From assembly GCA_015256915.3 (NCBI GenBank), contig CP076101.2, forward strand, positions 480,001 through 512,000: a stretch of DNA of 32,000 nt, in the 5' to 3' direction. A program made the translations under genes and the position numbers. Each line of letters opens with the position of its first letter. Positions within the stretch are counted from its first letter, which is position 1. The DNA is from Candidatus Saccharimonas sp. GTDB lineage: Bacteria > Patescibacteriota > Saccharimonadia > Saccharimonadales > Saccharimonadaceae. Below the pieces are notes generated by a model. It did no database searches and was not told the DNA's origin. It was given only the letters and a program-made list of their open reading frames with translations. This document shows positions 1 to 32,000 of this stretch, in pieces.

Positions 1-445
1 TATTATAAATTACTGCAATAACTTCAGCATCATAAGAAATACTTAACTTGTCTCGCCCAATCACATCAATATCGCATTGATAAAATTCACGAAAACGACC
101 TCGCTGCGCCCTTTCGCCGCGATAGACTTTACCAATTTGCGAACGTTTAAAAGGAAATTGCAACTGACCAAAATTCTCTGCAACAAATCTTGCAGTAGGT
201 ACAGTTAAATCAAACCGCAAACTTAAATCGTTATCACCTTTCGAAAAACGATAAATCTGTTTCTCAGTCTCACCACCAGCTTTTGCAAGAAGGGTCTCCG
301 TTCGCTCGATTACTGGCGTATCAATCGGAGTAAATCCGAATTTTTCATAATTTTTCTGAATAATTGCCATAATTCGATTAAATTCGAGCTGTTCTTCTGG
401 TAATAACTCCATCATCCCAGGTAATGGTTTTGTATTAATTTTCAT
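1..445 (-). CDS. hisS: histidine--tRNA ligase, N-terminal part (gene runs off the window start)
   Basis: Reverse-strand translation from the ATG at 443-445 reads [26 protein letters not shown]...[16 protein letters not shown]...[25 protein letters not shown]. This is the class II HisRS motif 1/2 region. It is absent from the ORF track because the window edge truncates it. Confidence 0.85.
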
Positions 446-529
446 AATTCCTCAAATTCATTTTAATTGACTATTTAACTAAATGATACCATAAAATAGC
501 GTTTTTTTCAAATTTCAAAAAGGCCATTT

Positions 530-558
530 TTGCAGTTTTTGCACTAAAATGGTAAAAT
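530..558 (+). promoter_or_regulatory. sigma70-type promoter of rarA (leaderless configuration)
   Basis: TTGCAG (530-535), 17 nt spacer ending in TGG, TAAAAT (553-558). Only 6 nt (ATAGAA) separate it from the ATG at 565, and there is no Shine-Dalgarno sequence. Confidence 0.6.
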
Positions 559-564
559 ATAGAA

Positions 565-1770
565 ATGGATTACCAACAAAGAATTCCCCTTGCTGAAAAA
601 ATGAGGCCAAAAAAGCTTGATGAAGTCGTTGGCCAATCTCACCTTATTGGTAAAAATGGAATTTTACGAAAAATAATTGAAAACAAAGAACCTATTAGCT
701 TAATCTTTTGGGGGCCAGCTGGAACTGGCAAAACTACCCTTTCAAGAATTTTGGCGAATGAAGTCAATGCAGACTTTATTGAAATTTCAGCCGTCACTAG
801 TGGCAAAAAAGATATCGAAAAGGTTATTGAACATGCTCGCCAAAACTGGAACCTAGGGACGCGAACAATTCTTTTCGTTGATGAAATTCACCGCTTCAAT
901 AAATCGCAGCAAGATGCTTTTTTGCCGCATATTGAAAGCGGCTTAATAAATTTGATTGGGGCAACAACCGAGAATCCAGGATTCGAAATTATCACGCCGC
1001 TACTTTCAAGAAGTCGAGTCCTGTCGCTCAAGCCTTTAAATACTGAGGAGATTTCAAAAATCATTAAAAATGCACTTGAAAAAGTTTCGCCAAAAACAAA
1101 AATAGATCCAGAAGCACTCAAAATTCTCACTAAAATAAGTAGTGGCGATGCTCGAAATGCACTTGGAAATCTCGAGCTAATTTTAAATTTTGAAAAAAAT
1201 AACATTACACCGGAAGTTATTAAAAATTCAATCGAAAATCCAACCTTAATTTATGATAAAAATGGCGATTCTCATTATGACACAATATCAGCTTTTATTA
1301 AAAGTATGCGAGCCAGTGATGTTGATGCAACTGGCTACTATCTAGCTAAAATGCTAAACGCTGGCGAAGACCCAAAATATATCGCCCGCCGAATGATTAT
1401 TTTTGCAAGTGAGGATATTGGGCTAGCTGGAAATGGCGCCCTTAGTTTAGCAAATTCTGCTTTTGATGCGGTTGAAAAAATAGGAATGCCAGAAGCTAAA
1501 TATAATCTATTCCATGCTGCAATAGCTTTAGCAAAATCTAAAAAATCACGCGAAGCCACCGGAATTATGTATCAATCTTACAACTTAGCCCAAAAAGCTC
1601 CGAACGCCCCTATTCCTTTACACTTAAGAAATTCTACTTCTAAAATTACCGAGGAGCTAGGCTATAATAAGGGATACCAGTGGACGGCAGGTTTCAAGCA
1701 CCCAGAAGATAATCTGCCTAAAGAGGTTCGCGAGCTTATATCATTAGATAAGCAAAATAAAAAATCTTAG
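565..1770 (+). CDS. rarA: replication-associated recombination protein A (AAA+ ATPase, MgsA/RarA)
   Basis: 401 aa. N-terminus MRPKKLDEVVGQSHLIG, Walker A GPAGTGKTT, Walker B LFVDEIHRF, and a C-terminal MgsA-type helical domain (YDTISAFIKSMRASDVDA..YYLARML..GEDP.YIARR). Confidence 0.9.
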   Translation: MDYQQRIPLAEKMRPKKLDEVVGQSHLIGKNGILRKIIENKEPISLIFWGPAGTGKTTLSRILANEVNADFIEISAVTSGKKDIEKVIEHARQNWNLGTRTILFVDEIHRFNKSQQDAFLPHIESGLINLIGATTENPGFEIITPLLSRSRVLSLKPLNTEEISKIIKNALEKVSPKTKIDPEALKILTKISSGDARNALGNLELILNFEKNNITPEVIKNSIENPTLIYDKNGDSHYDTISAFIKSMRASDVDATGYYLAKMLNAGEDPKYIARRMIIFASEDIGLAGNGALSLANSAFDAVEKIGMPEAKYNLFHAAIALAKSKKSREATGIMYQSYNLAQKAPNAPIPLHLRNSTSKITEELGYNKGYQWTAGFKHPEDNLPKEVRELISLDKQNKKS

Positions 1771-1807
1771 ATGGTGAATGGTCACCAGAAATTAAAGAAC
1801 TAACGAA

Positions 1808-2407
1808 ATGACATACAAAAGTAACAGATTAATATTGTTTCTGATATTCACTTTCTACATAATTATTCCGTTTTTATTACTAATTAATCCATTATTTTTT
1901 AAAAATAAATTCATAATTTTAACTATCAGCGGAATTTTAATTTATATTCTACTCAGATTATTAGGTTTCAATAACAGCTCCCTCGGCATCAAACCGGCAA
2001 AGACCACACAGTCAATTCGAGATATTTCAGCGATAACACTTATTCTTATAGTTGTTGGAATTATTTTATCCAGCTTTAAAATATCAAGATTCCAGCCAAG
2101 CGAAACTTTGTCTTTTTACTTATTTTATATTTTTATATCTTCGCCTATTCAAGAATTTCTTTACAGGGGAGTATTAACGAGCATTTTACAACAAATAAAT
2201 TTTCGAAAATTTTCAATCATCTTGACTTCATCGATTTTATATAGCTTAGCGCATTTAGGCTATAAAGATCTCATAACCTGCATATTAACATTTCTAATTG
2301 GTCTATTGTGGCATCAAAAATATCTCAAAACCAAGAACCTCACTGGAGTAATCATTAGCCATGCAATCTTAGGAGTTATCACAATTTTTATTGGGATCAT
2401 TGATTAG
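1808..2407 (+). CDS. CPBP family intramembrane glutamic endopeptidase (CAAX protease-like)
   Basis: 199 aa polytopic membrane protein with the CPBP motifs EFLYRG, SLAHL and SHAILG. Confidence 0.8.
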   Translation: MTYKSNRLILFLIFTFYIIIPFLLLINPLFFKNKFIILTISGILIYILLRLLGFNNSSLGIKPAKTTQSIRDISAITLILIVVGIILSSFKISRFQPSETLSFYLFYIFISSPIQEFLYRGVLTSILQQINFRKFSIILTSSILYSLAHLGYKDLITCILTFLIGLLWHQKYLKTKNLTGVIISHAILGVITIFIGIID

Positions 2408-3852
2408 TCAGTTTCTGGTAAAATATTTTCAAGCCAAAGTTTAATTTCTTCTAAAATATATTCTTCTTGTGAGTTTAAATTTTGGTTATTTGCAATCTCT
2501 TGGAATTCTTTCATAAAATTGGGCATCATTTTTTGTAAATTTTCTACCCGATACTCTTCCCAAAGCTCTTTTTCTTGAGAACTTAAACTTTTCGGAAAAT
2601 TCCTTGCTTTATAATGAAGAAGTAGATCCGTCAATCGTTCGTCAGCAAAATCTGGATGAAAATCAGCAAGCTCACGATCAGTTGAATTTCGAACAGCTTC
2701 AATTTTAATATCATCACTTCTTGAAACAAAACCTTCAAAAAGCCGAGCTTCTGGAGCTGTTTTTTCTGCACTACTCTTATTTTGAAAGACTTCACTTCGC
2801 CTTTCAAAAGCAGATCTAAGGTTTTCAGCAAAGTGCGGATTATTTCGTAAAATGTCTAAATTTTTTTGAATTTCAGCTAAATTAATCTTCAATCTTTGCT
2901 GGTCCTCATCAGTCAAAACGCCCATTGGCGCAACTGCTGGACATTTATTATACTGCAAAATCTTTGCTGCAACAGGTTCGAAATCATCACTCGAACGTGT
3001 TTCGAAATCTGCCGTAATATTTTCAAGAATTTGATCCTCACTCCAATCAATAAATTTTTCAGGAGAAAACCGCAAATCCCAAACAATTACATTTTGATTT
3101 TTAGCCGGCGCAATAGGAAACGCTACGGTAGTTTTTTCAAACTCAACTTTAAATCGGCCAGAAGTATAAACAAATGGTTTCGGATTCTCAAGATTAACTA
3201 GTTTTTGCACTTCATTCTTTGAACGAATTTTAAAGAGATAATCAAAAATCTGCGGCTGTTTTTCTTTCAAGAGTCGTGCAACATCTATCAAACCATCAAC
3301 ATCACTCATTGCATCATGAGCATTCTCATGCAAGATTCCGTTTTCTTTAGTTAAAAGCTCAAGCTTATTAGCCGCAAATTTTTCACCAGTTTCTTCATTT
3401 ATAATAAACGGCCAATTAATACCTTCCGGACGAAGAGCGCGAATCATTCGCACAACATCAAGTAAATCCCAACGCGAGCGACCATCTTTCCACTGCCAAT
3501 CATATGGTGGGTAGAAATTTCGCCACAAAAGATGCTGAATATGAACATCGTCAAATCGAACATTATTATATCCGACAATCACTGTATCTGGCGTAAAATA
3601 TTCTTCAACGAGCATTTTCGAAAATTCAGCCTCAGTATAGCCTTCTTCAACTGTTTTTTGTGGGCTAATTTTTGTAACCATTAATGCACTCGGGCTTGGC
3701 AAAACATCATCATTCAATCTAACTAAAATATTAATAGGCTCACCAATTCGATTAAGGTTTTCATCTGTTCGCTGCCCTGCAAATTGCATAATTCGGTCGT
3801 TTTGCGGACTAAATCCACTGGTCTCTAAATCATAAAAAAAGAAAGTCTTCAT
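2404..3852 (-). CDS. sbcB: exodeoxyribonuclease I
   Basis: 482 aa. N-terminal DEDDh exonuclease motif FFFYDLETSGFSPQNDRIMQFAGQRTD, then H..HDAMSDV, with the length and C-terminal domains typical of ExoI. Its stop overlaps the convergent CPBP stop by 4 nt. Confidence 0.85.
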   Translation of the reverse strand: MKTFFFYDLETSGFSPQNDRIMQFAGQRTDENLNRIGEPINILVRLNDDVLPSPSALMVTKISPQKTVEEGYTEAEFSKMLVEEYFTPDTVIVGYNNVRFDDVHIQHLLWRNFYPPYDWQWKDGRSRWDLLDVVRMIRALRPEGINWPFIINEETGEKFAANKLELLTKENGILHENAHDAMSDVDGLIDVARLLKEKQPQIFDYLFKIRSKNEVQKLVNLENPKPFVYTSGRFKVEFEKTTVAFPIAPAKNQNVIVWDLRFSPEKFIDWSEDQILENITADFETRSSDDFEPVAAKILQYNKCPAVAPMGVLTDEDQQRLKINLAEIQKNLDILRNNPHFAENLRSAFERRSEVFQNKSSAEKTAPEARLFEGFVSRSDDIKIEAVRNSTDRELADFHPDFADERLTDLLLHYKARNFPKSLSSQEKELWEEYRVENLQKMMPNFMKEFQEIANNQNLNSQEEYILEEIKLWLENILPETD

Positions 3853-3858
3853 GGTTAT

Positions 3859-3887
3859 ATTTTACTCTATCTCTCCATTTTTTTCAA
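3859..3887 (-). promoter_or_regulatory. sigma70-type promoter of sbcB (leaderless configuration)
   Basis: On the minus strand: TTGAAA (3887-3882), 17 nt, TAAAAT (3864-3859), 6 nt (ATAACC), ATG at 3852. Confidence 0.55.
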
Positions 3888-4029
3888 TTTTCTTTACTTT
3901 TTAGTAATCTTACCTTACAATTATATCATACCGGTGATTATGAATACTAAATACCTTGACATGGATGTAACACAAATATTAAACCCATAAACTATGTCAC
4001 TTATGGCGTCTTATTCAGGAAAGGATTTT

Positions 4030-6603
<2,574 letters not shown>

Positions 6604-6612
6604 TTAAATATT

Positions 6613-7674
6613 TTAGTGTATATAGTTCGAAACACTACTTGCAGGTACTGTTCGAGTTGTTACAACATTTAGTTTTCCAGCATAATTCATATCTGAAACA
6701 GTGATTGTTCCATCAGAATTCACAGATTCAACAATAGCAACATGTCCGTAACCCCAGATGTATGAGTTTGCGTAAGCATTCCACTGAGCAATTGCACCTA
6801 CAGATGGATTTTGGTCAACTTTATATCCAGCAGCTCTAGCACTAACCGCCCAAGTTGAAGCATTACCCCAGAAACTTCCGATATCTGGACGGCGATTATA
6901 TGCATACCAAGTACAGTTTCCCCAGGCATAAGCATTTCCAGCTTTGACATTGTAATTAGAAGATAGAGATACTGGCGATACATTCACAGAACTAGAAGAT
7001 TTTCGAGAATTTGAAGTTGTAGAAGTTGAGAAAACCTTAGATTTAGGATTATAATCTGGTCGCTCTTCTTCAGGCAAGATACCACCAGGAATTACAATCT
7101 CAACGCCTTCTTTAGGCTCTTCGCCATCTTTAAGCTTATTATAAGAAATCAATCTCTCTAAATTGGCTTGGTATTTTTCTGCTACAGATTTAATACTATC
7201 GCCAGATTTAAATCGATAAACAATTCCATCTACAGGCAGAATCCTTAGTTCTTTATTAGCCTCAACTTTATCACCCTTCAAGCTATTAACCCATTTAATA
7301 GTTTGAGCAGTTATGCCATATTTATCAGCAATAGCTTGAATAATCTCTTCTGAAGTTGTAGTGTATTTAATGATTTCACGTTTTTCAGAAGAAACCTCAA
7401 GAACTTTAGGCTTTTCAACAGAAGCAGCAGCTTGAGGTGAATCCTGAAGTATCGCAGTAGATGTTGAAAGACTCGCTACAGAAGATGCGATTGCTAAATC
7501 AGCAGACTCCGCAAGATTAGCAACAACACCAGACTCCGTAACTTTGTCTGCTACAGAATATTTCTCATTACTATTTTGAGTATTTTCAACAGATTTTGAA
7601 TTAATTTGATTATTTAGCTCAGTCGATTTTTTAATATCTGGCTGACTACCCCCAAATACAGCAATCATAACCAC
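6613..7674 (-). CDS. secreted peptidoglycan hydrolase with two LysM repeats and a C-terminal CHAP domain
   Basis: LysM-like repeats (YTTTSEEIIQAIADKYGITAQTIKWVNSL and YRFKSGDSIKSVAEKYQANLERLISYNKL). CHAP catalytic Cys/His context (GNCTWYAYNRR ... GHVAIVESV). The 5' end is uncertain: 7674 is a GTG inside a hydrophobic segment (see findings). Confidence 0.8.
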   Translation of the reverse strand: MVMIAVFGGSQPDIKKSTELNNQINSKSVENTQNSNEKYSVADKVTESGVVANLAESADLAIASSVASLSTSTAILQDSPQAAASVEKPKVLEVSSEKREIIKYTTTSEEIIQAIADKYGITAQTIKWVNSLKGDKVEANKELRILPVDGIVYRFKSGDSIKSVAEKYQANLERLISYNKLKDGEEPKEGVEIVIPGGILPEEERPDYNPKSKVFSTSTTSNSRKSSSSVNVSPVSLSSNYNVKAGNAYAWGNCTWYAYNRRPDIGSFWGNASTWAVSARAAGYKVDQNPSVGAIAQWNAYANSYIWGYGHVAIVESVNSDGTITVSDMNYAGKLNVVTTRTVPASSVSNYIH

Positions 7675-8011
7675 AATAATAAAAATAGAAGAATAAACAA
7701 CAGTTGATTTTAAACTTAGTATATTAATTATCTTTAGAAAAGTGGAATCAGAAACTTTATTATTTCTATTCTGTATGATTTCAATCTTAGGAGATTTAAC
7801 TCCTTGTTTTTGACTACAAATAATTTTTCTCCCGCAAACACATTACTGTGATGCACTACCTTAATAATACCCTTTCTTTTCGAAAATTAGCATAATGTCG
7901 ACCTTTTTAATTAATATTATAGAGTTAAACGAATGCTATAAAGTATTTTCTGGTAGGTGCCTTAATATAAAAATACACAAAACATCATTTTTATATTAAT
8001 TTACATATAAA

Positions 8012-8040
8012 ATTCTATCAAATATTAATGAAATTGTCAA
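8012..8040 (-). promoter_or_regulatory. candidate promoter upstream of the LysM/CHAP gene
   Basis: On the minus strand: TTGACA (8040-8035), 17 nt, TAGAAT (8017-8012). This would give a leader of about 330 nt before 7674. Confidence 0.45.
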
Positions 8041-8046
8041 GCTTAA

Positions 8047-9216: not shown

Positions 9217-9632
9217 TAAAAATTCTCCTCCAAATAATCTTGTAAAATAATTGAAGCCGCATTCATATCAATATCACCTTTTGAATATGGCTTTCCATAG
9301 CTTTTTAGCCTGTCCTCAGCCTGAATACTCGTCAAGCTTTCATCTTGAAAACAAATTTTATCGACTGAATATTCAAAATTTTTTACAAATTCTTTGGTAT
9401 AAGCAGTTTGCGAAGTCTCTTCACCACTCTGATTTCGTGGCAGCCCAACCACAAGAACGTCGATTTCTTCTTTCGAAATTATCTCAATAATTTGTTTTAT
9501 TGCAGAATCTATATCATTATTAATTTCAACAGTAGTAAATGGTATTGCTATTTTAATAAAGGAGTCAGCCAAAGCAATACCAATCCTCTTAGTACCAACA
9601 TCAAGCGCCATTAACTTTAAAGATTTCATCAT
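9216..9632 (-). CDS. ruvX: putative pre-16S rRNA nuclease / Holliday junction resolvase-like YqgF
   Basis: 138 aa. LMALDVGTKRIGIALAD N-terminus and VVGLPRNQSGEE, typical of YqgF/RuvX. Its ATG overlaps the upstream stop (ATGA). Confidence 0.85.
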   Translation of the reverse strand: MMKSLKLMALDVGTKRIGIALADSFIKIAIPFTTVEINNDIDSAIKQIIEIISKEEIDVLVVGLPRNQSGEETSQTAYTKEFVKNFEYSVDKICFQDESLTSIQAEDRLKSYGKPYSKGDIDMNAASIILQDYLEENF

Positions 9633-21312: not shown

Positions 21313-21328
21313 TCGAAAGCTTTACTCA

Positions 21329-21874: not shown

Positions 21875-21881
21875 CTCTATA

Positions 21882-21915: not shown

Positions 21916-21965
21916 TTCGAAAAAAATAAAGCGCTTGCGTTTATTTAATATATATTATATGCTTA

Positions 21966-21994
21966 TTGACTTTTTTATACTTTTGTGCTATAAT
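21966..21994 (+). promoter_or_regulatory. consensus promoter of the 465 aa surface protein gene
   Basis: TTGACT (21966-21971), 17 nt spacer ending in TGC, TATAAT (21989-21994). This implies a structured 5' UTR of about 140 nt. Confidence 0.65.
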
Positions 21995-22137
21995 TCTAGC
22001 AGTTGACATATCATAATCAGCAGATCTGTCAATGAAGCTTAAAAATCGGGTTATTATGAGGTATGAATCGTGTACCTCAGTGTTCCTTATTATTTTGGCC
22101 AAAATAATAAAATCTAAAGGAAGGAAGGTGGATAATA

Positions 22138-23535: not shown

Positions 23536-23678
23536 CGACTAGCTTTGATTTTAACGATTGCACTTTGTCTTTCGAGACTCACGCTGGGCGGTTTTCCGCC
23601 GCCTGGCTTTACATTGATACTTCTTAATAACCCGATTTTAAGTTTTAACAATTCGGCTAAAGCGAAGAAAACAAAATA

Positions 23679-23707
23679 TTGACAAACAGAATTATGATGA
23701 TACTAAT
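23679..23707 (+). promoter_or_regulatory. candidate promoter of the LPXTG protein gene
   Basis: TTGACA (23679-23684), 16-17 nt, TACTAAT (23701-23707). Confidence 0.45.
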
Positions 23708-23755
23708 AATAAATTCTAATAAGTGGAGATTAGAAGGGAGAAAATGAGGGACCAA

Positions 23756-25990
23756 ATGAAAAAACTCATTAATTTTATTAAAAACCATTCAATAATCTCT
23801 GGTTCAGTTTTGGTGGCAGCAATAGCTCCAGCCCTAGTTTGGGCTTGGGGTCCATCTCGGCCATCATTCACTATTGAAAAACCAGCAGATTATATTACAT
23901 TTAACTCAATCACAAATAACCCTGTGATTGGCGGAGACGAAAAAGATTTCGTTGGAATCCGTGAAGTTGGCTCAAACGCAAAATGGACAAACAATATGAA
24001 AGTCCAAAATGGCAAAGAATATTACGTTCGAATGTACGTTCACAACAACGCGGCTTCGAACTTAAATCTTGTTGCCGAAAACGTGGTAGCAAAACTTAAC
24101 GTTCCAACAACAACAGCAAAAAATGTGACTGTTCAAGGTCAGATTTCGGCTTCAAATGCAAAGCCTAACACAGTTTGGGATGAAGCAACTTTTTCAAGTG
24201 ATAATGACTTTAACTTGGCTTATGTTGCTGGTTCTGCCCTTTTCGAAAATAACGGAATGGGTACAACTAAACTTCCAGACAGTATCGTAAATAATACTGG
24301 GGCAAAACTTGGATATGATAAACTTGACGGAAAAATCCCTGGATGTTTCCAATATGCAGGCTATGTAACCGTTAAAGTTAAAGCTCAAGTTAGCCAACCG
24401 CAAGAAAAAAATAATATCGACCTTGCGAAAACAGTTCGAAATAAAACAAATGGCGAAAAATCTTGGGTTGAAACTGCAAACGCAAAATCTGGCGACACAG
24501 TTCAATTCCAAATTCACGCTAAAAATACAGGTTCTACAGGAATTCAGAACTTAGTAATTCGCGATATTCTACCAAAAGGTTTGAATTATGTTGCAGGCTC
24601 AACAAAGCTCTACAACACATCAAATCCAAAAGGATTGAAAGTTAGCGACAATGTCATTCAAAATTCTGGAATCAATATCGGTTCATATCAACCAAATGGC
24701 GACGCTTATGTTCGGTTTGACGCAACTGTTTCAGCTGAAAATAGTTTACCAGTTTGTGGAGATAACACTTTAACTAACATCGCTCAAGCAAGTGACCAAA
24801 AAATTGTTAAAAACGACACTGCAAGCGTAAAAGTTACAAAAAAATGTGAAACTCCTAAAAATCCAATTTACAAATGTGAAGCTTTAAGTTTGAACATTGT
24901 TCGAAAAGACGAAAAACAAATTACTTATGCGGCTGACACAAAATATTCAGTAAAAGACACAGAGTTTACTGGCACAAAATATGTAGTAAAAAATTCAAAA
25001 AATGAAGTTGTTGCCGAAAAAGTTGTAAATGGTGGAACTAAATTCGAAATTACCGTTCCAAACAATGTGAACGAAAAATACACAGTTACTTCAACAATCA
25101 TCACTAAAAACGGTGAAAATTCAAATGCTAACTGTGAAAAATCTTTCGAAACTAAAGCTCCAACACCAATTCCATCTAAACCAGAATTAGTATGTCGAAA
25201 TATTACAATTAACCAAATTTCTCGAACAAAATTCGAATTTAACACTTCTTATACTGTAAATAACACAACATTCGTTGGTGTTAAATATATCGTAAAAGAT
25301 CAAAGTGGTAAAGTCGTAATTGAGAAAACTGTAAATAACGGCTCAAAATTGACGCTCAACATTGAAATTGTTGGTAAATTCACAATTTCTTCAACAGTTA
25401 TCACAAAAGATGGCGAAAACTCAAATTCAAATTGTGAAAAATCTTTCGAAGTTAAACGTGAAGAGAAACCTTCAATCCTTATCAAGAAAACTGTAAATAA
25501 TCAGAAAAATACTAAAGTTGAAGCGAATACTGATTTTAACTACGAGATTACAGTTTCGAATAACGGAAATGTTGATTTGAAAGATGTTGTTGTAACCGAC
25601 CGTGCACCAGCAAATATCACTTTTGTAAGTGCAGATAACGGTGAAATCAAAGATAATACTTTAACTCTAAAGATTAGCTCTTTGAAAGTTGGTGAAAGTA
25701 AAACTATTACAATTAAATCACAAGCAACAGCAACAGGAATAACTACCGTAAATACAGCTTGTGTAGATACACCAACAATTCCTGGTGATAATGATGGTTG
25801 TGATAGCGCGAAAGTGGAAGTTCCAAAGAAACAAACTCCACCAACACCTACACCAAACAACCCAACACCAAATATTCCAACAGAATTGCCACAAACTGGT
25901 GCAAATAGTATTTCTGCAATTCTTGGATTAACTTCGATGGTGACCGCCTTTGGTTACTACTTTACTAGCCGAAAAGCTGCAAGATTCTAA
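23756..25990 (+). CDS. LPXTG-anchored cell-wall surface protein with DUF11-like repeat domains (putative adhesin)
   Basis: Signal peptide MKKLINFIKNHSIISGSVLVAAIAPALVWA/WGP. Two DUF11-type modules (..SGDTVQFQIHAKNTGSTGIQNLVIRDILPKGLNYV.. and ..FNYEITVSNNGNVDLKDVVVTDRAPANITFV..). Pro/Thr linker, then the sorting signal LPQTG, a hydrophobic stretch and SRKAARF. The ORF opens at 23723 (GTG). ATGs at 23744 and 23756 are possible, and I prefer 23756 (GAGGGA 4-6 nt upstream). Confidence 0.85.
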   Translation: MKKLINFIKNHSIISGSVLVAAIAPALVWAWGPSRPSFTIEKPADYITFNSITNNPVIGGDEKDFVGIREVGSNAKWTNNMKVQNGKEYYVRMYVHNNAASNLNLVAENVVAKLNVPTTTAKNVTVQGQISASNAKPNTVWDEATFSSDNDFNLAYVAGSALFENNGMGTTKLPDSIVNNTGAKLGYDKLDGKIPGCFQYAGYVTVKVKAQVSQPQEKNNIDLAKTVRNKTNGEKSWVETANAKSGDTVQFQIHAKNTGSTGIQNLVIRDILPKGLNYVAGSTKLYNTSNPKGLKVSDNVIQNSGINIGSYQPNGDAYVRFDATVSAENSLPVCGDNTLTNIAQASDQKIVKNDTASVKVTKKCETPKNPIYKCEALSLNIVRKDEKQITYAADTKYSVKDTEFTGTKYVVKNSKNEVVAEKVVNGGTKFEITVPNNVNEKYTVTSTIITKNGENSNANCEKSFETKAPTPIPSKPELVCRNITINQISRTKFEFNTSYTVNNTTFVGVKYIVKDQSGKVVIEKTVNNGSKLTLNIEIVGKFTISSTVITKDGENSNSNCEKSFEVKREEKPSILIKKTVNNQKNTKVEANTDFNYEITVSNNGNVDLKDVVVTDRAPANITFVSADNGEIKDNTLTLKISSLKVGESKTITIKSQATATGITTVNTACVDTPTIPGDNDGCDSAKVEVPKKQTPPTPTPNNPTPNIPTELPQTGANSISAILGLTSMVTAFGYYFTSRKAARF
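24875..25453 (+). repeat. two tandem, diverged ~90-100 aa Cys-bounded modules inside the LPXTG gene
   Basis: Residues about 385-476 and 491-577 of the 755 aa ORF align: C..N/I..K..Y..DT/NT.F.G.KY.VK...VV.EK.VN.G.K......KFT/YTV.ST.ITK.GENSN.NCEKSFE. An 18 nt identical DNA segment TGTGAAAAATCTTTCGAA occurs at about 25133 and 25433. Confidence 0.75.
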
Positions 25991-26032
25991 GCTGACCGCT
26001 TCTCAATGGAGCGATCAAGCTTCAAATCTAAA

Positions 26033-26066
26033 AAAATAGACTTCCACTTGGAGGTCTATTTTATTT
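26033..26066. terminator. bidirectional terminator between the LPXTG gene and folD
   Basis: AATAGACTTCCA CT TGGAGGTCTATT (12 bp, one G-U pair), flanked by AAAAAA on the left and TTTATTTTTAT on the right. Confidence 0.7.
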
Positions 26067-26918
26067 TTATAAATCTTGCTGGCCTTTTTTATCAGCAATT
26101 TTTCTTGCTGCTATAATTACATTATCAATTAGTGAAGCCACCGTAAGCGGACCAACACCACCCTTCACAGGGGTAATTATTAAGTCTTTTCGAAAATCAC
26201 GAACTTCTTCAGCTACATCGCCTTTAATTTTGCCATTTTCGCTTGCCGTTCCGGCGTCAACAACCACAGCTTTATTTTTTAGCATTTCTGAAGTTATTAA
26301 ATTTGGCTTTCCAACAGCTGTAATTACCACATCAAAATCTTTAAGTTGTTCTTTCATTTCTTTCGAATTAAATTCATCAAATTTCGAAACTGGCACACCA
26401 GAAGCCTCAAGCATTTTTGAAAGTGGTGCACCTACAAGTTTACCTTGACCAACAATAGCAACTTTTTTATTCTCTAACGAAATATTATACCCCGCTAAAA
26501 GCCAATTTATCGCCTGGGCTGTGGCTGGCACAAAAGCACCATCATTCAAACCGTCAACATCTTTTTCTTTAGATATTTCTGATAAAATTTGCTCAGTTTC
26601 TTCTTTCGAAATTTTCTTACCATTTATATCTTCAAGTGGAAGCTGAACAATAATTCCATGAATATTTTCATTAAGATTTGCTTTCTGGATTTCTTTTTTC
26701 ATAAATTCAACAGCAACTTTTCTCCGTTCAACCTCGATTAAAATATCTTCACCATATTTTTCTTTAAGCCGCATATAAGTTTCAGTTACAGGATTTTTCG
26801 AAGAGTAAAAAATTAATAATTTTGGAAAAACCCGCCAACTTTGCCGCAAAGCCCGCACTTGCTTAGCTTGACGCTCTTTAATAAAATCGCGGAGTTCTGC
26901 ACCATCTAAAATTCTCAT
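26067..26918 (-). CDS. folD: bifunctional methylenetetrahydrofolate dehydrogenase / methenyltetrahydrofolate cyclohydrolase
   Basis: 283 aa. YMRLKEK, GIIVQLPL, VVGQGKLVGAPL and PVKGGVGPLTVA motifs. Confidence 0.9.
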   Translation of the reverse strand: MRILDGAELRDFIKERQAKQVRALRQSWRVFPKLLIFYSSKNPVTETYMRLKEKYGEDILIEVERRKVAVEFMKKEIQKANLNENIHGIIVQLPLEDINGKKISKEETEQILSEISKEKDVDGLNDGAFVPATAQAINWLLAGYNISLENKKVAIVGQGKLVGAPLSKMLEASGVPVSKFDEFNSKEMKEQLKDFDVVITAVGKPNLITSEMLKNKAVVVDAGTASENGKIKGDVAEEVRDFRKDLIITPVKGGVGPLTVASLIDNVIIAARKIADKKGQQDL

Positions 26919-26924
26919 TCTTTT

Positions 26925-26953
26925 ATTATACGCAAATATATTGAAAAATTCAA
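26925..26953 (-). promoter_or_regulatory. promoter of folD (leaderless configuration)
   Basis: On the minus strand: TTGAAT (26953-26948), 17 nt, TATAAT (26930-26925), 6 nt (AAAAGA), ATG at 26918. Confidence 0.6.
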
Positions 26954-27015
26954 TTTTTTAATATATAATTTAACATATAATCATTACAGAAGTTAATCAA
27001 AGAAAGGATTTTTGA

Positions 27016-27567
27016 ATGTATAATTATAATAGCTACCACACATATAGGTACAAAAATTACAGCCATAGCGCAGATGATGAAGCTATTGCTGGAATATCTA
27101 TTGCATTCTTTTTAATTTTCGTGCTAGTTGCTGCAGTTATAGGATATGTTATTAGCTCTCTTCTATACATGCTAATTTTTAAAAAGGCTGGAATCGATAC
27201 CAAAAAAGCTTGGATTCCTTTCTATAACAGATGGACGTTTTTCGAACTTGGTGGACAAGAAGGTTGGAAATCTCTTTTAACTTTCGTTCCTTATGTTGGA
27301 CTAATAATCTCATTAGTTTTCGAAGTTCTTGCAGTTATTGAGATTAGCAAAAAACTAGACAAATCACCTGCCTGGTCTGTTCTTTTCATATTTGCAGCCC
27401 CTATCTGGTTCTTAATTCTTGGCCTAGATAGTTCTCGCTGGAATGATATAGCCGGTAAAGAAAGCCTTGCAAAAGGAACTATACTTGGTTATAAAATCGT
27501 AGAAGAAGAGAAAGAAGCAGAAGAAGAAAAAACTCCTGAAGCCAAAGAAGAAAAAACAGAAGAATAA
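27016..27567 (+). CDS. DUF5684-like small membrane protein with an acidic C-terminal tail
   Basis: 183 aa. The segment MLIFKKAGIDTKKAWIPFYNRWTFFELGG matches, from memory, the conserved FKKAG..W.A.IP.YN core of that family. AAAGGA Shine-Dalgarno. Confidence 0.55.
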   Translation: MYNYNSYHTYRYKNYSHSADDEAIAGISIAFFLIFVLVAAVIGYVISSLLYMLIFKKAGIDTKKAWIPFYNRWTFFELGGQEGWKSLLTFVPYVGLIISLVFEVLAVIEISKKLDKSPAWSVLFIFAAPIWFLILGLDSSRWNDIAGKESLAKGTILGYKIVEEEKEAEEEKTPEAKEEKTEE

Positions 27568-27583
27568 TTCTTTTTTAAAAATT

Positions 27584-27620
27584 AAAACGACATTCGATTC
27601 AAGAATGTCGTTTTAATTTT
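27584..27620. terminator. bidirectional terminator between the 183 aa gene and murB
   Basis: AAAACGACATTC GATTCAA GAATGTCGTTTT (12 bp perfect stem) with A and T runs on both sides. Confidence 0.8.
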
Positions 27621-27622
27621 TA

Positions 27623-28669
27623 TTAAATCTCCAGTGGTTCTTGTTCAATTTTTAAACCAAATTTTTCAAAAACTCTATCCTGAATTATTTTTCTTGCTTT
27701 AGCCAGCTCATCATAGTTTTTAGCTGAAATATTTGTTAAAACTAAAGCATTCTCTGGATGAACTTTTATTCCAAAAAATTCTTTTCCCTTCAATTCCACT
27801 TGTTCAATAAGCCAGCCAGTTGCAATTTTGTATTTTTCACCCACTTCAAAGAGTGGTACATTTTGATATTTTTTGCGAATCTCTGCAGCTTTCTCTTTCG
27901 AAATTATTACATTCTTGAAAAAACTTCCAGAATTCGGAATTTCCTCTGGGTCTGGCAATTTTTTTGAACGAATTTCAGCCACCATGTTCATTACATCTTT
28001 CGCTGTTAGATTTTCTTTATTTTTGCCAATATTCTCAAGTTTCTCCTTTAAAACCTTATATTCAGGCATTTCTGGTTTAGATTTTGAAAGCTTCAAATTT
28101 ACCGAAACGATAAAATATTTTCCTTTAGCATCATTCTTAAAAATACTATCACGGTAGGCGAATTCACATTCACTTTTTAATAAAGTTTTGATTTCACCAG
28201 TTGAGATTTCGAAAACTTTAACACTTTTTAAAATATCAGCAATTTCCTGGCCATATGCACCAACATTTTGGATTGGTAGAGCTCCAACCGTTCCGGGAAT
28301 CATCACCATTGCTTCACAACCGCTAAAACCTTCCGAAACTGCAAATTTAACAAAATTATGCCAATTTTCACCAGATTTTATGCGGAATTCAATATTCTCA
28401 TCATTTTCGAAAACCTTTTCAAAACCTTTAATTTCATTTTTTATCACTATTCCTGCAAAGTTTTGATCCTTCACAATCGTGTTGCTTCCGCCGCCAAGAA
28501 TAAAAATCGGCAAATTATTTTTTTCTGAAAACTTAATCGCATTCTTAAAATCTTCGATATTTTTTACTACTGTAAAAAAATGAGCTTTTCCACTAATTTT
28601 CATAGTCGTAAGTTTACCAAAATCAATATTTTGCTGAATTTTTAGATTTTCGAAAATTATTTCCTTCAT
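27623..28669 (-). CDS. murB: UDP-N-acetylenolpyruvoylglucosamine reductase
   Basis: About 348 aa. FAD-binding domain (LGGGSN.IV), MurB C-terminal domain (GSFFKN, ATGWLIEQ). I took the start at the ATG (28669). The ORF track starts at a TTG 9 nt upstream. Confidence 0.85.
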   Translation of the reverse strand: MKEIIFENLKIQQNIDFGKLTTMKISGKAHFFTVVKNIEDFKNAIKFSEKNNLPIFILGGGSNTIVKDQNFAGIVIKNEIKGFEKVFENDENIEFRIKSGENWHNFVKFAVSEGFSGCEAMVMIPGTVGALPIQNVGAYGQEIADILKSVKVFEISTGEIKTLLKSECEFAYRDSIFKNDAKGKYFIVSVNLKLSKSKPEMPEYKVLKEKLENIGKNKENLTAKDVMNMVAEIRSKKLPDPEEIPNSGSFFKNVIISKEKAAEIRKKYQNVPLFEVGEKYKIATGWLIEQVELKGKEFFGIKVHPENALVLTNISAKNYDELAKARKIIQDRVFEKFGLKIEQEPLEI

Positions 28670-28677
28670 ATAAATCA

Positions 28678-28706
28678 ATTATATCATAAAAAATAAAACC
28701 CGCCAA
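28678..28706 (-). promoter_or_regulatory. candidate promoter of murB (leaderless configuration)
   Basis: On the minus strand: TTGGCG (28706-28701), 17 nt spacer ending in TGA, TATAAT (28683-28678), 8 nt (TGATTTAT), ATG at 28669. Confidence 0.5.
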
Positions 28707-28721
28707 AAGCGAGAAGATCTA

Positions 28722-28798
28722 TGGTACACCCGGCAGGATTTGAACCTACAACCGCCTGGTTCGAAGCCAGGTACTCTATCCAGTTGAGCTACGGGTGC
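28722..28798 (-). tRNA. tRNA-Arg (anticodon TCG), CCA encoded
   Basis: The reverse complement folds as GCACCCG TA GCTC AACTGGATA GAGT A CCTGG CTTCGAA CCAGG CGGTT GTAGG TTCAAAT CCTGC CGGGTGT A CCA. Pair 1-72 is G-U. Confidence 0.9.
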
Positions 28799-28840
28799 TT
28801 AATAAATAAATTATACCACACTTTTTTTATTTTGTGAAGA

Positions 28841-30433
28841 CTATTTTTTAATAAATTTTAAAATTTTATATAAAGAATCACCGTTTAATGAATTGTTATA
28901 ATCCATTTCTTTTGAAAAATTATAACCAGCAATTGGTGATTTTTTATCAGCGCTATTATATGGGGAAATTATAAAAAACTCTTTATTTTTCAAAAAACTA
29001 CTATCATTTTCAATCTTTGGCGTGTAATCAGCTCGAATCATATCGCCAGAACGATAAATTGGTGGTTCGCCATAAAACCAAATTTTACTTTCATTATTGG
29101 AATATTGTGCTGCTGAATAATATAAAAATCCGCCAACAGCAATTGCTGCATTATTTTTTTCATTTCGAACCTTTTCAATCGCTTGCCGAATTTCAGTAAT
29201 TTCTCCACCATTTTTAGAAATACCCTTTTGTAAATTAAGCTGAAAAATTCCAAAAATATGCGAAAAAATAATCAAAATAATCAATAAAATTGAAATGCTC
29301 TTTTTATTTTCAAAAAATTTAACCGCAATAATTGCCATTAAAATCGACACAAAAACTTCAGCCATAAGTAAATATCTGTCAACAAAAATTGAACTAAATG
29401 GTGGTAAACTTGCGATATAAAGCAAAAATATAGGAATCACTGAGACTGAAAAAATCAGCCAAAAAATACTATTATTTTTTTTGCTCCTCCACTTTTCGAA
29501 TGTAAAAAATACAATAATCAGAAGAATAACCATAGCCATCAAAGATAGCCAACCGTTAGTTTTGCTAGCATCAAGATAAAAAAAGAAATTCGATACCATA
29601 TTTGATATTGTTGTAAAATCAAGTGCAGGAATCCAGAACTTAGCTTTAACATAAGTAGCTTGCGAAACAAAAAATGGAACCCAAGGAGTATATAAAAATG
29701 CGATAATCAAATGTGAAGACAGCCATTTTTCAGCAAAAAAATTACCAAAAAACTGTCCCGTACTATTCTTCTGCTTTTGAAATTTCAAACAGCTAAAAAG
29801 ATGAAATCTATTGTTCTTTTCTTGATTCTTCGAAATATAAACTGCTCTAAAAATCCATAATGAAATTGGAATCAAAGCATAGAGATACTGCGTCCAAATT
29901 CCAGCGCAGACAGTAATAATATAAATTATTCGCCATTTTTTCTTACTTTTCATCGTATTTTCGGCAACCCAAGCTTCATAAAAGGCCCTCACCGTTAAAA
30001 CACTCAAAAATGCTACCATAGTATACATTCTAGCTTCCTGCGAATATCTAATTAGCATCGGTGAAATTGCAAGAAAACCGCTTGCCAATAGTGAAATTTT
30101 CTTATTATAGAGTCTTTTTACCAAAAAATATGCCAAAATTATAGTTAAAATACCAAAAAATACAGATAGACTCCTCAATGCAAAGTCGCTAGAGCCGAAA
30201 AATACACTCCAAATCTTCAATAAAAAATAGTAAAGCGGTGGATGAACGTCAACAGATGTGTAATGCCAAATCTCAGCAAAATTAAAACGAATTATGTAAG
30301 CCGAAAAAGCCTCATCGAACCAGATTGAGGCTTTCGAAATTGTTAAAAAAACAAGGGTTAAAAATCCTGAAATAATTCCCAGAAAAGCAATTTTAGAGCG
30401 GCACTCTTTAAATCTCGAAAAAACCATACCCAT
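28841..30433 (-). CDS. GT-C fold glycosyltransferase (family 39 / ArnT / PMT-like)
   Basis: 530 aa polytopic membrane protein. The N-terminal loop IWFDEAFSAYI...DVHPPLYYFLLKIW is typical of GT39/ArnT-type lipid-linked sugar transferases. An alternative start lies at 30427. Confidence 0.75.
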   Translation of the reverse strand: MGMVFSRFKECRSKIAFLGIISGFLTLVFLTISKASIWFDEAFSAYIIRFNFAEIWHYTSVDVHPPLYYFLLKIWSVFFGSSDFALRSLSVFFGILTIILAYFLVKRLYNKKISLLASGFLAISPMLIRYSQEARMYTMVAFLSVLTVRAFYEAWVAENTMKSKKKWRIIYIITVCAGIWTQYLYALIPISLWIFRAVYISKNQEKNNRFHLFSCLKFQKQKNSTGQFFGNFFAEKWLSSHLIIAFLYTPWVPFFVSQATYVKAKFWIPALDFTTISNMVSNFFFYLDASKTNGWLSLMAMVILLIIVFFTFEKWRSKKNNSIFWLIFSVSVIPIFLLYIASLPPFSSIFVDRYLLMAEVFVSILMAIIAVKFFENKKSISILLIILIIFSHIFGIFQLNLQKGISKNGGEITEIRQAIEKVRNEKNNAAIAVGGFLYYSAAQYSNNESKIWFYGEPPIYRSGDMIRADYTPKIENDSSFLKNKEFFIISPYNSADKKSPIAGYNFSKEMDYNNSLNGDSLYKILKFIKK

Positions 30434-30442
30434 GATAAATCT

Positions 30443-30471
30443 ATTATATCATAGCTTTTAGCTTTTCGAAA
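30443..30471 (-). promoter_or_regulatory. candidate promoter of the GT-C gene (leaderless or near-leaderless)
   Basis: On the minus strand: TGATATAAT extended -10 (30451-30443), 9 nt, ATG at 30433. The -35 position reads TTTCGA. Confidence 0.45.
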
Positions 30472-30484
30472 TATTAAAAATTAC

Positions 30485-31756
30485 CTATAAATCGCTTGGT
30501 AGCGGAAAATTTCTAGCAAAATCTGCAACTTCTCTTTTAATTTCGGTAAGTTTTTTAGAATCTTCACGGTATTTAATTGCAAGATCCATCCATTCAGCAA
30601 TTTTTGCCATCTCGATTTCCTTCATTCCACGCGAAGTTACAGCTGGCGTTCCAAGTCGGATCCCGCTTGGTGCGAACATAGACAAAGTATCATTAGGAAT
30701 CGAATTAGCGTTTAAAGTTAGGCCAATTGCATCCATTGCGCGTTCGGCAGTTTTCCCATCAATTCCAAAACTTGCATAAATATCAACTAAAATTAAGTGA
30801 TTTTTTGTACCTCCGGTCACAAGTTTAAAACCTCTTTTCGAAAGCTCTTCAGCCAAAAAATGAGCATTCTTTACTACCTGTTGAGCATAAATTTTAAATT
30901 CAGGCTGAAGTGCTTCATAAAAAGAAATTGCTTTTGCCGCAATTGAGTGCATTTGTGGGCCGCCTTGAGTTCCCGGAAAAACACTGCGATCAATTAAAGT
31001 TGGTAAATTTTCAAGAGTTTTTTCTGGTTTTTTGAGTGGATTCCCCACTTTTCCATTCGAAAGAATCATTCCGCCACGAGGGCCACGGAGGGTTTTATGT
31101 GTTGTAGTTGTCACAACATTAAAACCATACTCAAATGGGTTTTTCGAAACACCTCCAGCAATCAATCCAGCGATATGTGCTACATCCGCCATCAACATTG
31201 CTCCATATTTTTTGCCAATTTCAGCAATTTTAGCATAATCAATTTCGCCAGGATATGCAGAAAATCCCACAAGAATAATTTTTGGCTTATATTTTTCAGC
31301 TAATTCTTCAATCTGCTTATAATTAATTTCACCATTTTCATCTAAGCCATATCGCACAAAATTATAAATCTTACCACTACGCGTTACTGGTGAGCCATGT
31401 GTTAAATGACCGCCCTGAGATAAATCCATACCTAAAACCGTATCGCCAACTTCTAGCCAAGCATTATAAACCGCCTCATTAGCATTTGCACCACTATGTG
31501 GTTGGACATTCGCATGATCACAATTAAAAAGCTGTTTTGCGCGTTCGATCGCTAAACTTTCAATGATATCAGTATTCTCCTGACCGCCATAATATCTTTT
31601 CCCTGGGTAGCCTTCAGAATATTTATTCGTTAAGACCGAGCCAAGCGCCGCCAATACTTCTCTTGAAACATAATTTTCACTTGGAATTAATTCCAAGCCT
31701 TCTCGCTGACGATTTTCTTCATTTTCAATTACGTCAAAAATCTTTTCATCAAACAT
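30485..31756 (-). CDS. glyA: serine hydroxymethyltransferase
   Basis: 423 aa. LELIPSENY, YPGKRYYGG, and the PLP-lysine context TTTTHKTLRGPRGG. AAGGAGAG Shine-Dalgarno 6 nt upstream. Confidence 0.95.
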   Translation of the reverse strand: MFDEKIFDVIENEENRQREGLELIPSENYVSREVLAALGSVLTNKYSEGYPGKRYYGGQENTDIIESLAIERAKQLFNCDHANVQPHSGANANEAVYNAWLEVGDTVLGMDLSQGGHLTHGSPVTRSGKIYNFVRYGLDENGEINYKQIEELAEKYKPKIILVGFSAYPGEIDYAKIAEIGKKYGAMLMADVAHIAGLIAGGVSKNPFEYGFNVVTTTTHKTLRGPRGGMILSNGKVGNPLKKPEKTLENLPTLIDRSVFPGTQGGPQMHSIAAKAISFYEALQPEFKIYAQQVVKNAHFLAEELSKRGFKLVTGGTKNHLILVDIYASFGIDGKTAERAMDAIGLTLNANSIPNDTLSMFAPSGIRLGTPAVTSRGMKEIEMAKIAEWMDLAIKYREDSKKLTEIKREVADFARNFPLPSDL

Positions 31757-31870
31757 AAAAAACTCTCCTTAAAAATTAAACTTTTTGAAACTAAAAATAT
31801 AAAAAACCGTCGCTATATCATATTTTTAAGTATACCATATTTTTTAAAAATAAAAAAATTCTTAGAAAAC

Positions 31871-31900
31871 TTGTTTTTATTATACCATAAGTGATATAAT
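31871..31900 (+). promoter_or_regulatory. promoter of the XRE-like gene (leaderless configuration)
   Basis: TTGTTT (31871-31876), 18 nt spacer ending in TGA, TATAAT (31895-31900), 6 nt (TATTTT), ATG at 31907. Confidence 0.5.
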
Positions 31901-31906
31901 TATTTT

Positions 31907-32000
31907 ATGAACGAAGAACAAGCCTATTTAGAAAAAATCGGGAAGCTTATTCAAGAATCCCGCTTACACAAGAATTTAACTCAAGTTGAGCTTGCTGAAA
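31907..32000 (+). CDS. XRE-family helix-turn-helix transcriptional regulator, N-terminal fragment (runs off the window end)
   Basis: MNEEQAYLEKIGKLIQESRLHKNLTQVELAE. The G..I...R....LTQ.ELA pattern is the start of an HTH_3 (Cro/C1) domain. Confidence 0.55.
   Translation, partial: MNEEQAYLEKIGKLIQESRLHKNLTQVELAE

Follow-up and report, generated by a model that had tools for sequence, protein, structure and literature searches.

The window analysed here is a whole stretch of 32,000 nucleotides (nt) from a Candidatus Saccharimonas sp. genome (contig CP076101.2, positions 480,001 to 512,000), and the element in question is a short palindrome, TTCGAA, that recurs throughout it. The genes of the window are housekeeping genes, encoding RarA, exonuclease I, Obg, MltG, RuvX, AlaRS, TIM, PGK, TypA, FolD, MurB and SHMT. 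An exact count gave 91 copies of TTCGAA, about one per 350 bases, 40 of them lying within the full octamer TTTCGAAA. A preliminary description, counted by hand from the sequence, had reached the same two totals; 90 of its 91 start positions were correct, and the remaining one is 20722, not 20721. The sites are as follows.

1..32000, strandless (palindrome): dispersed TTCGAA array, n = 91, extended consensus t-T-TTCGAA-A-a
TTCGAA starts (exact count): 240, 982, 2202, 2688, 2977, 3001, 3617, 4423, 4550, 4965, 5243, 5660, 6314, 6465, 6626, 7879, 8241, 8383, 8642, 8669, 9472, 9858, 10209, 10729, 10983, 11154, 11655, 12553, 12860, 13154, 13290, 13726, 14123, 14221, 14670, 14769, 15086, 15694, 15727, 15770, 15865, 15934, 16047, 16358, 16379, 16577, 17157, 17355, 18607, 18763, 19052, 19168, 19967, 20184, 20515, 20722, 20873, 21312, 21733, 21823, 21916, 24027, 24055, 24242, 24435, 24900, 25043, 25145, 25232, 25445, 25555, 26189, 26362, 26383, 26605, 26797, 27241, 27319, 27897, 28208, 28406, 28649, 28760, 29164, 29495, 29829, 30333, 30465, 30837, 31056, 31143
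239..31149: full-octamer TTTCGAAA sites, n = 40, starts 239, 2201, 3000, 3616, 4422, 4964, 5659, 7878, 8641, 9471, 9857, 10728, 10982, 12552, 12859, 13153, 14220, 14768, 15769, 16046, 17156, 17354, 19051, 20183, 21311, 21822, 21915, 24241, 25144, 26188, 26382, 26604, 27896, 28207, 28405, 28648, 30332, 30464, 30836, 31142

Counts, reading frames and flanks of TTCGAA

At the G+C content of the window (34.7%), base composition alone predicts 10.7 copies of TTCGAA and 1.14 of TTTCGAAA, close to the estimates of about 11 and 1 made beforehand; the hexamer is thus present at 8.5-fold over expectation. Expressed per Mb, the window carries 2,840 TTCGAA and 1,250 TTTCGAAA. The octamer is the most frequent 8-mer of the window, above all words composed only of A and T, and its 40 copies compare with 8.7 expected at Markov order 3. 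Palindromes of the same composition, which had appeared scarce by eye, were counted at 5 (AACGTT) and 6 (ATCGAT), at or below expectation. When Markov models of increasing order were applied to the hexamer, the expected counts rose from 21 (order 1) and 34 (order 2) to 47.6 (order 3) and 76.5 (order 4); its z-score ranked first among 6-mers at orders 1 and 2 and second at order 3, behind its own subword TTTCGA. The preliminary description had proposed that a count less than twofold over a higher-order Markov expectation would refute the word. Orders 3 and 4 formally give such a result, but the rule itself is flawed, since these models contain the subwords of the motif: 91 of the 120 TTCGA, 91 of the 111 TCGAA and 91 of the 174 TCGA lie inside it. 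Because order-3 and order-4 models are fitted to the signal's own subwords, maximal-order models were dropped as a null, and nulls free of the signal were used instead, namely a synonymous-codon shuffle and the orthologous DNA of sister lineages.

The sites are distributed without regard to coding, with 81 in coding DNA (2.86/kb) and 10 in intergenic DNA (2.74/kb); a scan restricted to coding sequences yields 82, one site lying in a gene overlap. The synonymous shuffle, which preserves each protein and the overall codon usage, produced 24.4±4.3 copies in coding sequences (maximum 40 in 1000 runs) in comparison to the 82 observed. All three reading frames contribute, with 23, 24 and 35 sites against shuffle means of 8.6, 7.4 and 8.3, each a 3- to 4-fold excess; confinement to a single frame, named beforehand as grounds for rejecting the word, is not seen. 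The frames assigned earlier to individual copies were also correct: the site at 982 is in frame 0 (F-E) of the RarA gene and that at 2202 in frame 1 (F-R-K) of the CPBP gene. Codon choice at the sites departs from that of the genes as a whole. Phe-Glu is written TTCGAA in 23 of 52 cases, with TTC making up 22% of Phe codons overall; CGA occupies 24 of the 29 xTT-Arg-Axx contexts but accounts for 33% of all Arg codons, and TCG occupies 35 of the 83 T-Ser-AA contexts but 13% of all Ser codons.

A logo of the flanks of the 91 sites showed T at -1 in 68 (75%) and A at +6 in 54 (59%), and nothing conserved past ±2. The unit is therefore (T)TTCGAA(A) and not part of a longer repeat or mobile element. 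The 10 intergenic copies had no shared positional context; as coding and intergenic densities are equal, a transcription-factor site is unlikely. Spacing between sites in the clade of the window was near-random and slightly more even than random (coefficient of variation, CV, 0.73-0.95, in comparison to 0.98±0.11 for random placement), and in the related locus L023 it was strongly clustered (CV 1.56, with 50 gaps below 50 bp where 21 were expected). A regular structural role is thus not evident at this scale.

Two further compositional features of the window were recorded. The next most over-represented 6-mers at low Markov order were CCACCA, ACCACC and CACCAG (32 in comparison to 4.4 at order 1), found for example at 11459-11805 and 13691-13924; because the copies are scattered through minus-strand genes, this excess is probably a Gly/Val codon-context effect and not a DNA word. 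The plus strand contains 6367 C and 4746 G, and 17 of the 24 genes are on the minus strand, so that base skew and gene orientation go together.

Distribution among Nanogingivalaceae and other Saccharibacteria

For comparison, about 52 kb of the strain of the window and 5-22 kb of each relative were sampled, the relatives being represented by loci rather than whole genomes. A search with TypA returned 80 loci from GTDB species genomes, the nearest of which are from oral Saccharibacteria of humans, in the family Ca. Nanogingivalaceae (TM7 group G6), to which the window belongs; proteins identical to those of the window were also found on many metagenome-assembly contigs of the European Nucleotide Archive. 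In the 10-kb flanks beyond each end of the window, TTCGAA continued at 2.5-3.0 sites/kb. The densities by lineage, with the observed-to-expected ratio (O/E) at order 0, were as follows.

Clade of the window (DNA differs by 2-9%): 2.8-3.8 sites/kb, O/E about 8-11
L020-L022, L031 and L011 (DNA differs by 15-21%): 2.3-3.7 sites/kb, O/E 7-11
L023 (44% G+C; DNA differs by 24%): 4.7 sites/kb, O/E 15.7
L046 and L025 (TypA 92% identical): 3.5 and 2.1 sites/kb, O/E 11.0 and 6.9
L026, Ca. Nanogingivalis gingivitcus HOT-870 (TypA 90% identical): 0.23 sites/kb, O/E 0.7
L027 and L028 (TypA 86-87% identical): 0.5 and 0 sites/kb, O/E about 1.5 and 0
About 50 other Saccharibacteria (TypA 77-80% identical): about 0.24 sites/kb, O/E about 1

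The word is enriched in the clade of the window and in three related clades, at 2.1-4.7 sites/kb at the same locus, while the orthologous DNA of sister lineages has 0.23 sites/kb in comparison to 2.84/kb in the window. In each full-length enriched locus of the window's clade, the z-score of TTTCGAAA (13-15) far exceeded that of any other 8-mer; in the loci of the unenriched lineages, 8-mer z-scores revealed no word like it. (T)TTCGAA(A) is accordingly a lineage-specific, highly iterated palindrome in part of the Nanogingivalaceae (TM7-G6), present at about 3 copies/kb, and its use at synonymous opportunities is raised 5- to 13-fold.

Three loci, L013, L014 and L018, had an intermediate overall density (1.05-1.38 sites/kb) and proved to be mosaics. 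Segments covering TypA and part of AlaRS (locus positions ~9,500-13,500 and ~17,000-19,500, corresponding to window 12,500-14,500 and 18,500-21,000) are 85-99% identical to the window's clade and the rest 64-76%; among their native genes, PGK and MurB are 64% and 50% identical at the protein level. The imported segments contain 2.5-2.8 sites/kb and the native DNA 0.50-0.77/kb. Such loci indicate recent homologous import, as it appears from the identity patterns, between Nanogingivalaceae species that differ by 25-30%. A four-gene tree gave this clade a distorted position, since its TypA and AlaRS are recombinant imports; it was replaced by one of six native, non-imported genes, in which the L013 clade groups with L046 and L023 (bootstrap 89 and 100) and L026 falls outside all the enriched clades. 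In the TypA tree, the import misplaces L013, L014 and L018. The force behind the word is absent both from the sister lineage HOT-870 and from the nested L013/L014/L018 clade, where the motif occurs only in DNA imported from the window's clade. The most parsimonious history would be a single gain after the split from HOT-870 followed by loss in the L013 clade, in which case the native sites there are relics in decay; alternatively, the gain may be very recent, or a mobile determinant may have been gained more than once.

Several side observations emerged from these loci. In L023, clusters of 3-6 TTCGAA within 20-110 bp occur inside weakly constrained coding regions (e.g., 6178-6290, 15109-15174 and 16887-16977), a pattern absent in the window's clade. 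A non-palindromic 8-mer, GGCGATTA/TAATCGCC, is over-represented under an order-3 model in L023 (13 in comparison to 2.1), L025 (8 in comparison to 1.1) and L046 (11 in comparison to 1.9) and not in the window. Candidates for a second iterated word in Nanosynbacter loci (CGCCAAAT, CGCGCCAA and TTCCGCCA) were rejected, as they are no outliers under the order-3 model. Scans for clustered motifs, aimed at DNA or phages of the lineage, returned only chance pairs and tandem repeats from viral collections; from metagenome collections they returned mostly eukaryotic or unrelated contigs, no DNA methyltransferase, and a single contig that is likely to come from a relative, L245 (4.1 kb of 171 kb, ERZ773031.3). 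The latter is unlinked bacterial DNA of 36% G+C with 17 TTCGAA in 4 kb and HIT, RlmH-like and ABC/MacB-type genes, and could come from elsewhere in the genome of an enriched member of the Nanogingivalaceae.

Site maintenance, protein imprint and local density

Comparison with the nine full-length relatives of about 92% identity revealed that 77-86% of the sites of the window are intact; the corresponding share is 65-71% for hexamers in general and 55-64% for other hexamers with a CG. Against L046 the values were 49% for the sites and 20-22% for controls; against the unenriched L026, 2 of 46 sites were intact, no excess over the 14% of all hexamers. Between enriched genomes, divergence at the successive positions of the site was 0.032, 0.010, 0.077, 0.094, 0.024 and 0.009, in comparison to 0.055-0.157 at other NNCGNN hexamers, and this measure gave no protection of sites in comparisons with L013 or L026. 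CpG transitions were also fewer, 0.150 per site at TTCGAA in comparison to 0.260 at other CpGs. Synonymous changes followed the same direction for two codons: CGA changed in 0.6% of cases within sites and 9.6% outside, and TCG in 10% and 20%, respectively. Since the relatives are not independent samples, the Fisher p-values of this synonymous comparison are optimistic.

Where a site is not conserved at about 92% identity, the commonest alternative is TTTGAA or TTCAAA (57 of 113 non-conserved sites). These two words are themselves frequent, with 2.84/kb in the window and 2.8-3.3/kb in enriched loci, in comparison to 1.26/kb in unenriched G6, and a hand calculation from base counts places them at about 2.2 times the composition expectation of about 41. 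Words that are one transition away from the motif are in general about 1.2- to 2.2-fold enriched, and these one-off words look like a decay cloud around a maintained word. New sites have arisen in the enriched lineages, as, within the aligned part, 26-31 sites are private to each of the distant enriched lineages and only 3-6 to the L013 clade.

The word has also left its mark on proteins. At the sites of the window, the encoded peptide is identical in L026 at 19 of 52 sites, and TTCGAA is used at none of them; at identical peptides it is used in 14 of 18 cases in L046 and 11 of 16 in L023. Many frame-2 sites (x-Ser-Lys) encode different residues in L026. Phe-Glu has an O/E of 1.39-1.54 in four of the five enriched groups (1.14 in L046 plus L025) and about 1.0 in unenriched lineages, and Ser-Lys an O/E of 1.13-1.39 in enriched and 0.81-0.86 in unenriched lineages. 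Proteins are shifted towards Phe-Glu and Ser-Lys by the force on the word, and a DNA-level drive can thus measurably reshape dipeptide content. The preliminary description had placed the effect at the level of DNA rather than of codons or peptides; the occurrence in three frames, an intergenic density equal to the coding one, the outcome of the shuffle and the identical peptides that lack the motif in the sister lineage all bear this out. A codon, dipeptide, compositional or repeated-element origin of the excess is excluded, and a lineage-specific force acting on TTCGAA at the DNA level very probably exists.

Local features of the window are the following.

15694..16052, minus strand: densest local group, six sites in 359 bp, within a poorly conserved 427-amino-acid (aa) gene at 14867-16150 (5.45 sites/kb)
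21922..24026, plus strand: longest motif-free stretch, 2.1 kb, containing the open reading frame (ORF) 22138-23535 with 0 sites
28760..28765, minus strand: TTCGAA in the T-loop (GGTTCGAA) of tRNA-Arg(TCG), 28722-28798, part of the tRNA structure

The 427-aa protein is the least conserved of the window (26-29% identity in L013 and L026), and its L023 orthologue carries five TTCGAA in 70 bp; the motif piles up where protein constraint is weak. The region matching the motif-free stretch carries 0-4 TTCGAA per 2.1 kb in relatives. Its ORF, 22138-23535 (plus strand), encodes 465 aa with a coiled N-terminal region, a single transmembrane helix and a long tail rich in Ser, Thr and Pro, has 42% G+C in comparison to 35% in the window, and contains no F-E or [FLIV]-R-x peptides. 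Identity between strains is 79-89%, under the average of the locus, the ORF diverging faster than its neighbours; no family match was obtained, nor was a DNA-level match detectable in more distant G6 genomes. Based on these features, it is probably a variable membrane-anchored surface protein. The copy at 28760 is explained by the structure of tRNA-Arg and is no evidence for the iterated word. The alanine-tRNA ligase of the window (12592-14475, minus strand) is short, with 627 aa, PRK01584 as its best match and without the usual long C-terminal region.

Possible roles of the word

TTCGAA is the recognition sequence of AsuII/BstBI-type systems (TT^CGAA), and N6-methyladenine (m6A) methyltransferases for it are known (PMC5930826). 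The targets of resident enzymes are normally avoided, whereas TTCGAA is here enriched 8- to 16-fold; with the 8.5-fold excess of the window, it is unlikely to be the target of a resident type II enzyme. The argument made earlier, that a restriction target should be avoided, fits what other palindromes show. CTTAAG is avoided in nine related genomes of the window's clade (loci L007-L032; 3 in comparison to 47 expected), CGATCG and TGGCCA in L023 (0 and 2, each in comparison to 13), TTTAAA and ATCGAT in L046 plus L025 (4 in comparison to 32 and 4 in comparison to 28), and AGCGCT in L027 plus L028 (0 in comparison to 9). Such strong, lineage-specific avoidance resembles what a different set of restriction-modification systems in each lineage would leave behind. 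If TTCGAA is methylated, m6A is more likely than 5-methylcytosine (m5C): the TTCGAA methyltransferases that we found reported are m6A enzymes (PMC5930826), and the lower rate of CpG transitions at the sites than at other CpGs argues against m5C. In L091, a 172-aa ORF (6326-6844, minus strand), about 5 kb past the right end of the window between a ClpB-like gene and small unknown ORFs, has a weak match to an S-adenosylmethionine methyltransferase (RrnaAD, E = 7.6e-6) and is absent at the same position in L092-L094. As a DNA methyltransferase it was rejected, being too small and of the wrong family.

The likeness to highly iterated palindrome 1 (HIP1) and to the uptake sequences of competent bacteria, proposed in the preliminary description, extends to density, lineage specificity, site conservation, the one-off cloud and the protein imprint. 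Robinson 1995 is reportedly among the accounts of HIP1. HIP1 (GCGATCGC) and the alternate HIPs of cyanobacteria are likewise short palindromes that number in the hundreds to thousands per Mb and lie in every frame as well as between genes (PMC4390886; PMC5861425). They are carried by most members of a clade, isolated close relatives lacking them, and have conserved sites and palindromic flank extensions. As in the HIP class sensu Elhai 2015, TTCGAA is an outstanding over-represented palindrome (about 500-2500 copies/Mb or more) that is independent of coding and conserved above matched controls, here in locus samples rather than whole genomes. In contrast to the HIPs, it is AT-rich with a 6-nt core, has lower information content and an O/E of 8-16 rather than 15-300, and belongs to an ultrasmall, reduced-genome epibiont of another phylum that is reported to lack MutS and MutL; it is not HIP1 proper, being another word in a saccharibacterial host. 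With the DNA uptake sequence (DUS) of Neisseriaceae and the uptake signal sequence (USS) of Pasteurellaceae it shares a density on the order of one per kb, a position inside genes in all frames, a one-off cloud and a dipeptide imprint; in these systems, too, related lineages differ in which word they carry, if any. The phylum that carries TTCGAA is competent (PMC10633639), and recombination between lineages is visible at the locus. DUS and USS differ in being asymmetric words of 9-12 nt, non-palindromic, the DUS being read by the ComP pilin in Neisseria; the palindrome described here has 6-8 nt and a reader that is only putative. The word therefore has the descriptive properties of a highly iterated palindrome and most of those of an uptake sequence.

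Very-short-patch (VSP) repair is held to have inflated CCWGG in E. coli. There, as here, C/T differences dominate between strains, and the over-represented word is the target of a methyltransferase; here, in contrast, T-containing one-off words are enriched, flank positions are protected and no sign of m5C hypermutability is seen. A neutral repair or gene conversion of this type, in which an m5C methyltransferase and a Vsr-like endonuclease turn T:G in TT(T/C)GAA into C:G, would account for TTTGAA and TTCAAA being the commonest differences between strains at the sites. The presumed precursors would then be depleted, yet they are enriched; T:G repair gives no account of the outer four positions, whose protection at least equals that of the CpG; and CpG transitions at the sites are not elevated, with the reported enzymes being of the m6A kind. 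We regard this explanation as decidedly improbable. Slightly less improbable, although still unlikely, is the by-product of a methyltransferase and methyl-directed mismatch repair (Elhai's HIP ratchet), in which a TTCGAA methyltransferase marks the sites, site-completing mutations are fixed, site-destroying ones are repaired, and the word needs no function. In its favour are the protection of all six positions, the continued appearance of new sites and a patchy distribution in close relatives, such as a mobile methyltransferase gene would give. Cyanobacterial HIPs, moreover, co-occur with cognate methyltransferases (PMC4390886), and m6A enzymes for TTCGAA exist (PMC5930826). The ratchet requires MutS and MutL, though (PMC4390886), and is unlikely because Jaffe et al. 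found neither in any Saccharibacteria (PMC8406219); it also predicts saturation near one site/kb, whereas densities here reach 3-4.7/kb, with five sites in 70 bp in L023, and the window and its ±10 kb flanks revealed no methyltransferase.

A binding site for an abundant chromosome-organising protein, serving nucleoid structure or segregation and kept by selection, is unlikely but has more to recommend it. A palindrome suits a dimeric protein, sites are conserved above background, their spacing in the window's clade leans towards evenness, and Xu et al. proposed the same role for HIP1 on finding conservation and periodicity (PMC5861425). The spacing is nonetheless close to Poisson, it is strongly clustered in L023, and sister lineages of the same gene order manage without the word. 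That TTCGAA is an ordinary result of base composition, codon or codon-pair usage, dipeptide content or a repeated element is scarcely credible: the order-4 expectation approaches the observed count, but that model is made of subwords lying mostly inside the motif, and against this explanation stand the shuffle (24 in comparison to 82), the equality of intergenic and coding density, the flanks unconserved past ±2 nt, and the orthologous genes of sister lineages, which have similar G+C and lack the word.

We tentatively favour, by analogy, a HIP1- or DUS-like word that is read by a lineage-specific factor and may serve as a self tag when DNA is taken up and/or recombined. The factor, trans-acting and dispensable, would read the palindrome as a dimer, and the palindrome would mark DNA as 'self' during natural transformation, at the step of uptake, homologous recombination or both. 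Copies would spread through biased uptake or recombination (molecular drive) together with selection, wherever proteins tolerate them, and the reader might be a DNA receptor, or a TTCGAA methyltransferase or methyltransferase-dependent system. Spread by drive plus selection has been proposed for DUS/USS and now for cyanobacterial HIP1, which raises transformation up to 100-fold in a methylation-dependent manner and has itself been proposed as an uptake sequence (bioRxiv 10.1101/2024.09.10.611283; 10.64898/2026.06.24.733823). This reading was ranked highest because Saccharibacteria are naturally competent (PMC10633639), lineages have exchanged DNA at the locus, the one-off cloud and proteome imprint are present, and HIP1 offers an analogue. 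By our own reasoning, an AT-rich word with a CpG should be rare in the DNA of the high-G+C Actinobacteria hosts and would discriminate much more against host DNA.

Several points weigh against a self tag. Uptake sequences have 9-12 nt and are non-palindromic, and the discrimination against relatives that an AT-rich word of 6-8 nt affords is only about 10-fold. Although it took in DNA rich in TTCGAA, the L013 clade is not enriched itself, which is no simple fit to uptake bias. Competence was demonstrated in other Saccharibacteria, not in G6 (PMC10633639). No methyltransferase, Vsr, restriction or receptor gene was found in the window, in its ±10 kb flanks or among their unannotated ORFs. At the sequence level, TTC is unprotected, changing synonymously in 27% of cases both in sites and outside, and so is GAA in the window's clade (10% in sites, 8% outside); preservation of the motif at synonymous sites in relatives, which the preliminary description had wanted examined, is seen for CGA and TCG and not for TTC. 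From this uneven protection across codons it follows that the force is moderate, opposed by the strong C-to-T pressure of an AT-rich genome. Gains and losses polarised by singletons in 12 genomes of the window's clade (losses at 5 of 37 sites in comparison to 38 of 185 other CpGs; gains 2 of 30 in comparison to 61 of 976) are too few to show a gain bias directly.

The literature searched yielded no report of TTCGAA or TTTCGAAA as an iterated bacterial word or in connection with Saccharibacteria, or of any uptake sequence or HIP in Saccharibacteria. So far, HIPs have posed a question essentially about cyanobacteria, and uptake sequences one about two families of Proteobacteria; in the present case the word belongs to a human-associated, ultrasmall, reduced-genome epibiont, and the reported lack of MutS and MutL in Saccharibacteria removes one leading neutral explanation. 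With four enriched clades beside two unenriched relatives and one nested clade with imports only, comparing which genes are present in a few dozen genomes of about 0.7 Mb should be enough to name the one responsible. The word also marks Nanogingivalaceae DNA and can aid binning and the detection of recombination. A more specific proposal, which we consider possible but rather doubtful, is that TTCGAA acts as a self-recognition tag for uptake or recombination in a competent, uncultivated clade of the candidate phyla radiation: a short, possibly methylation-dependent palindromic counterpart of DUS/USS that arose after the HOT-870 split and that the L013 clade has either turned off or is just beginning to gain. 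If so, it would be the first such signal, for uptake or recombination, known beyond the Proteobacteria and Cyanobacteria, and its natural gain and loss among lineages would let comparative genomics find the reader. Should the word take part in transformation, it might also open these oral bacteria, as yet uncultivated, to genetic work. With such a tag, an epibiont of high-G+C Actinobacteria could distinguish its own DNA from that of its host.

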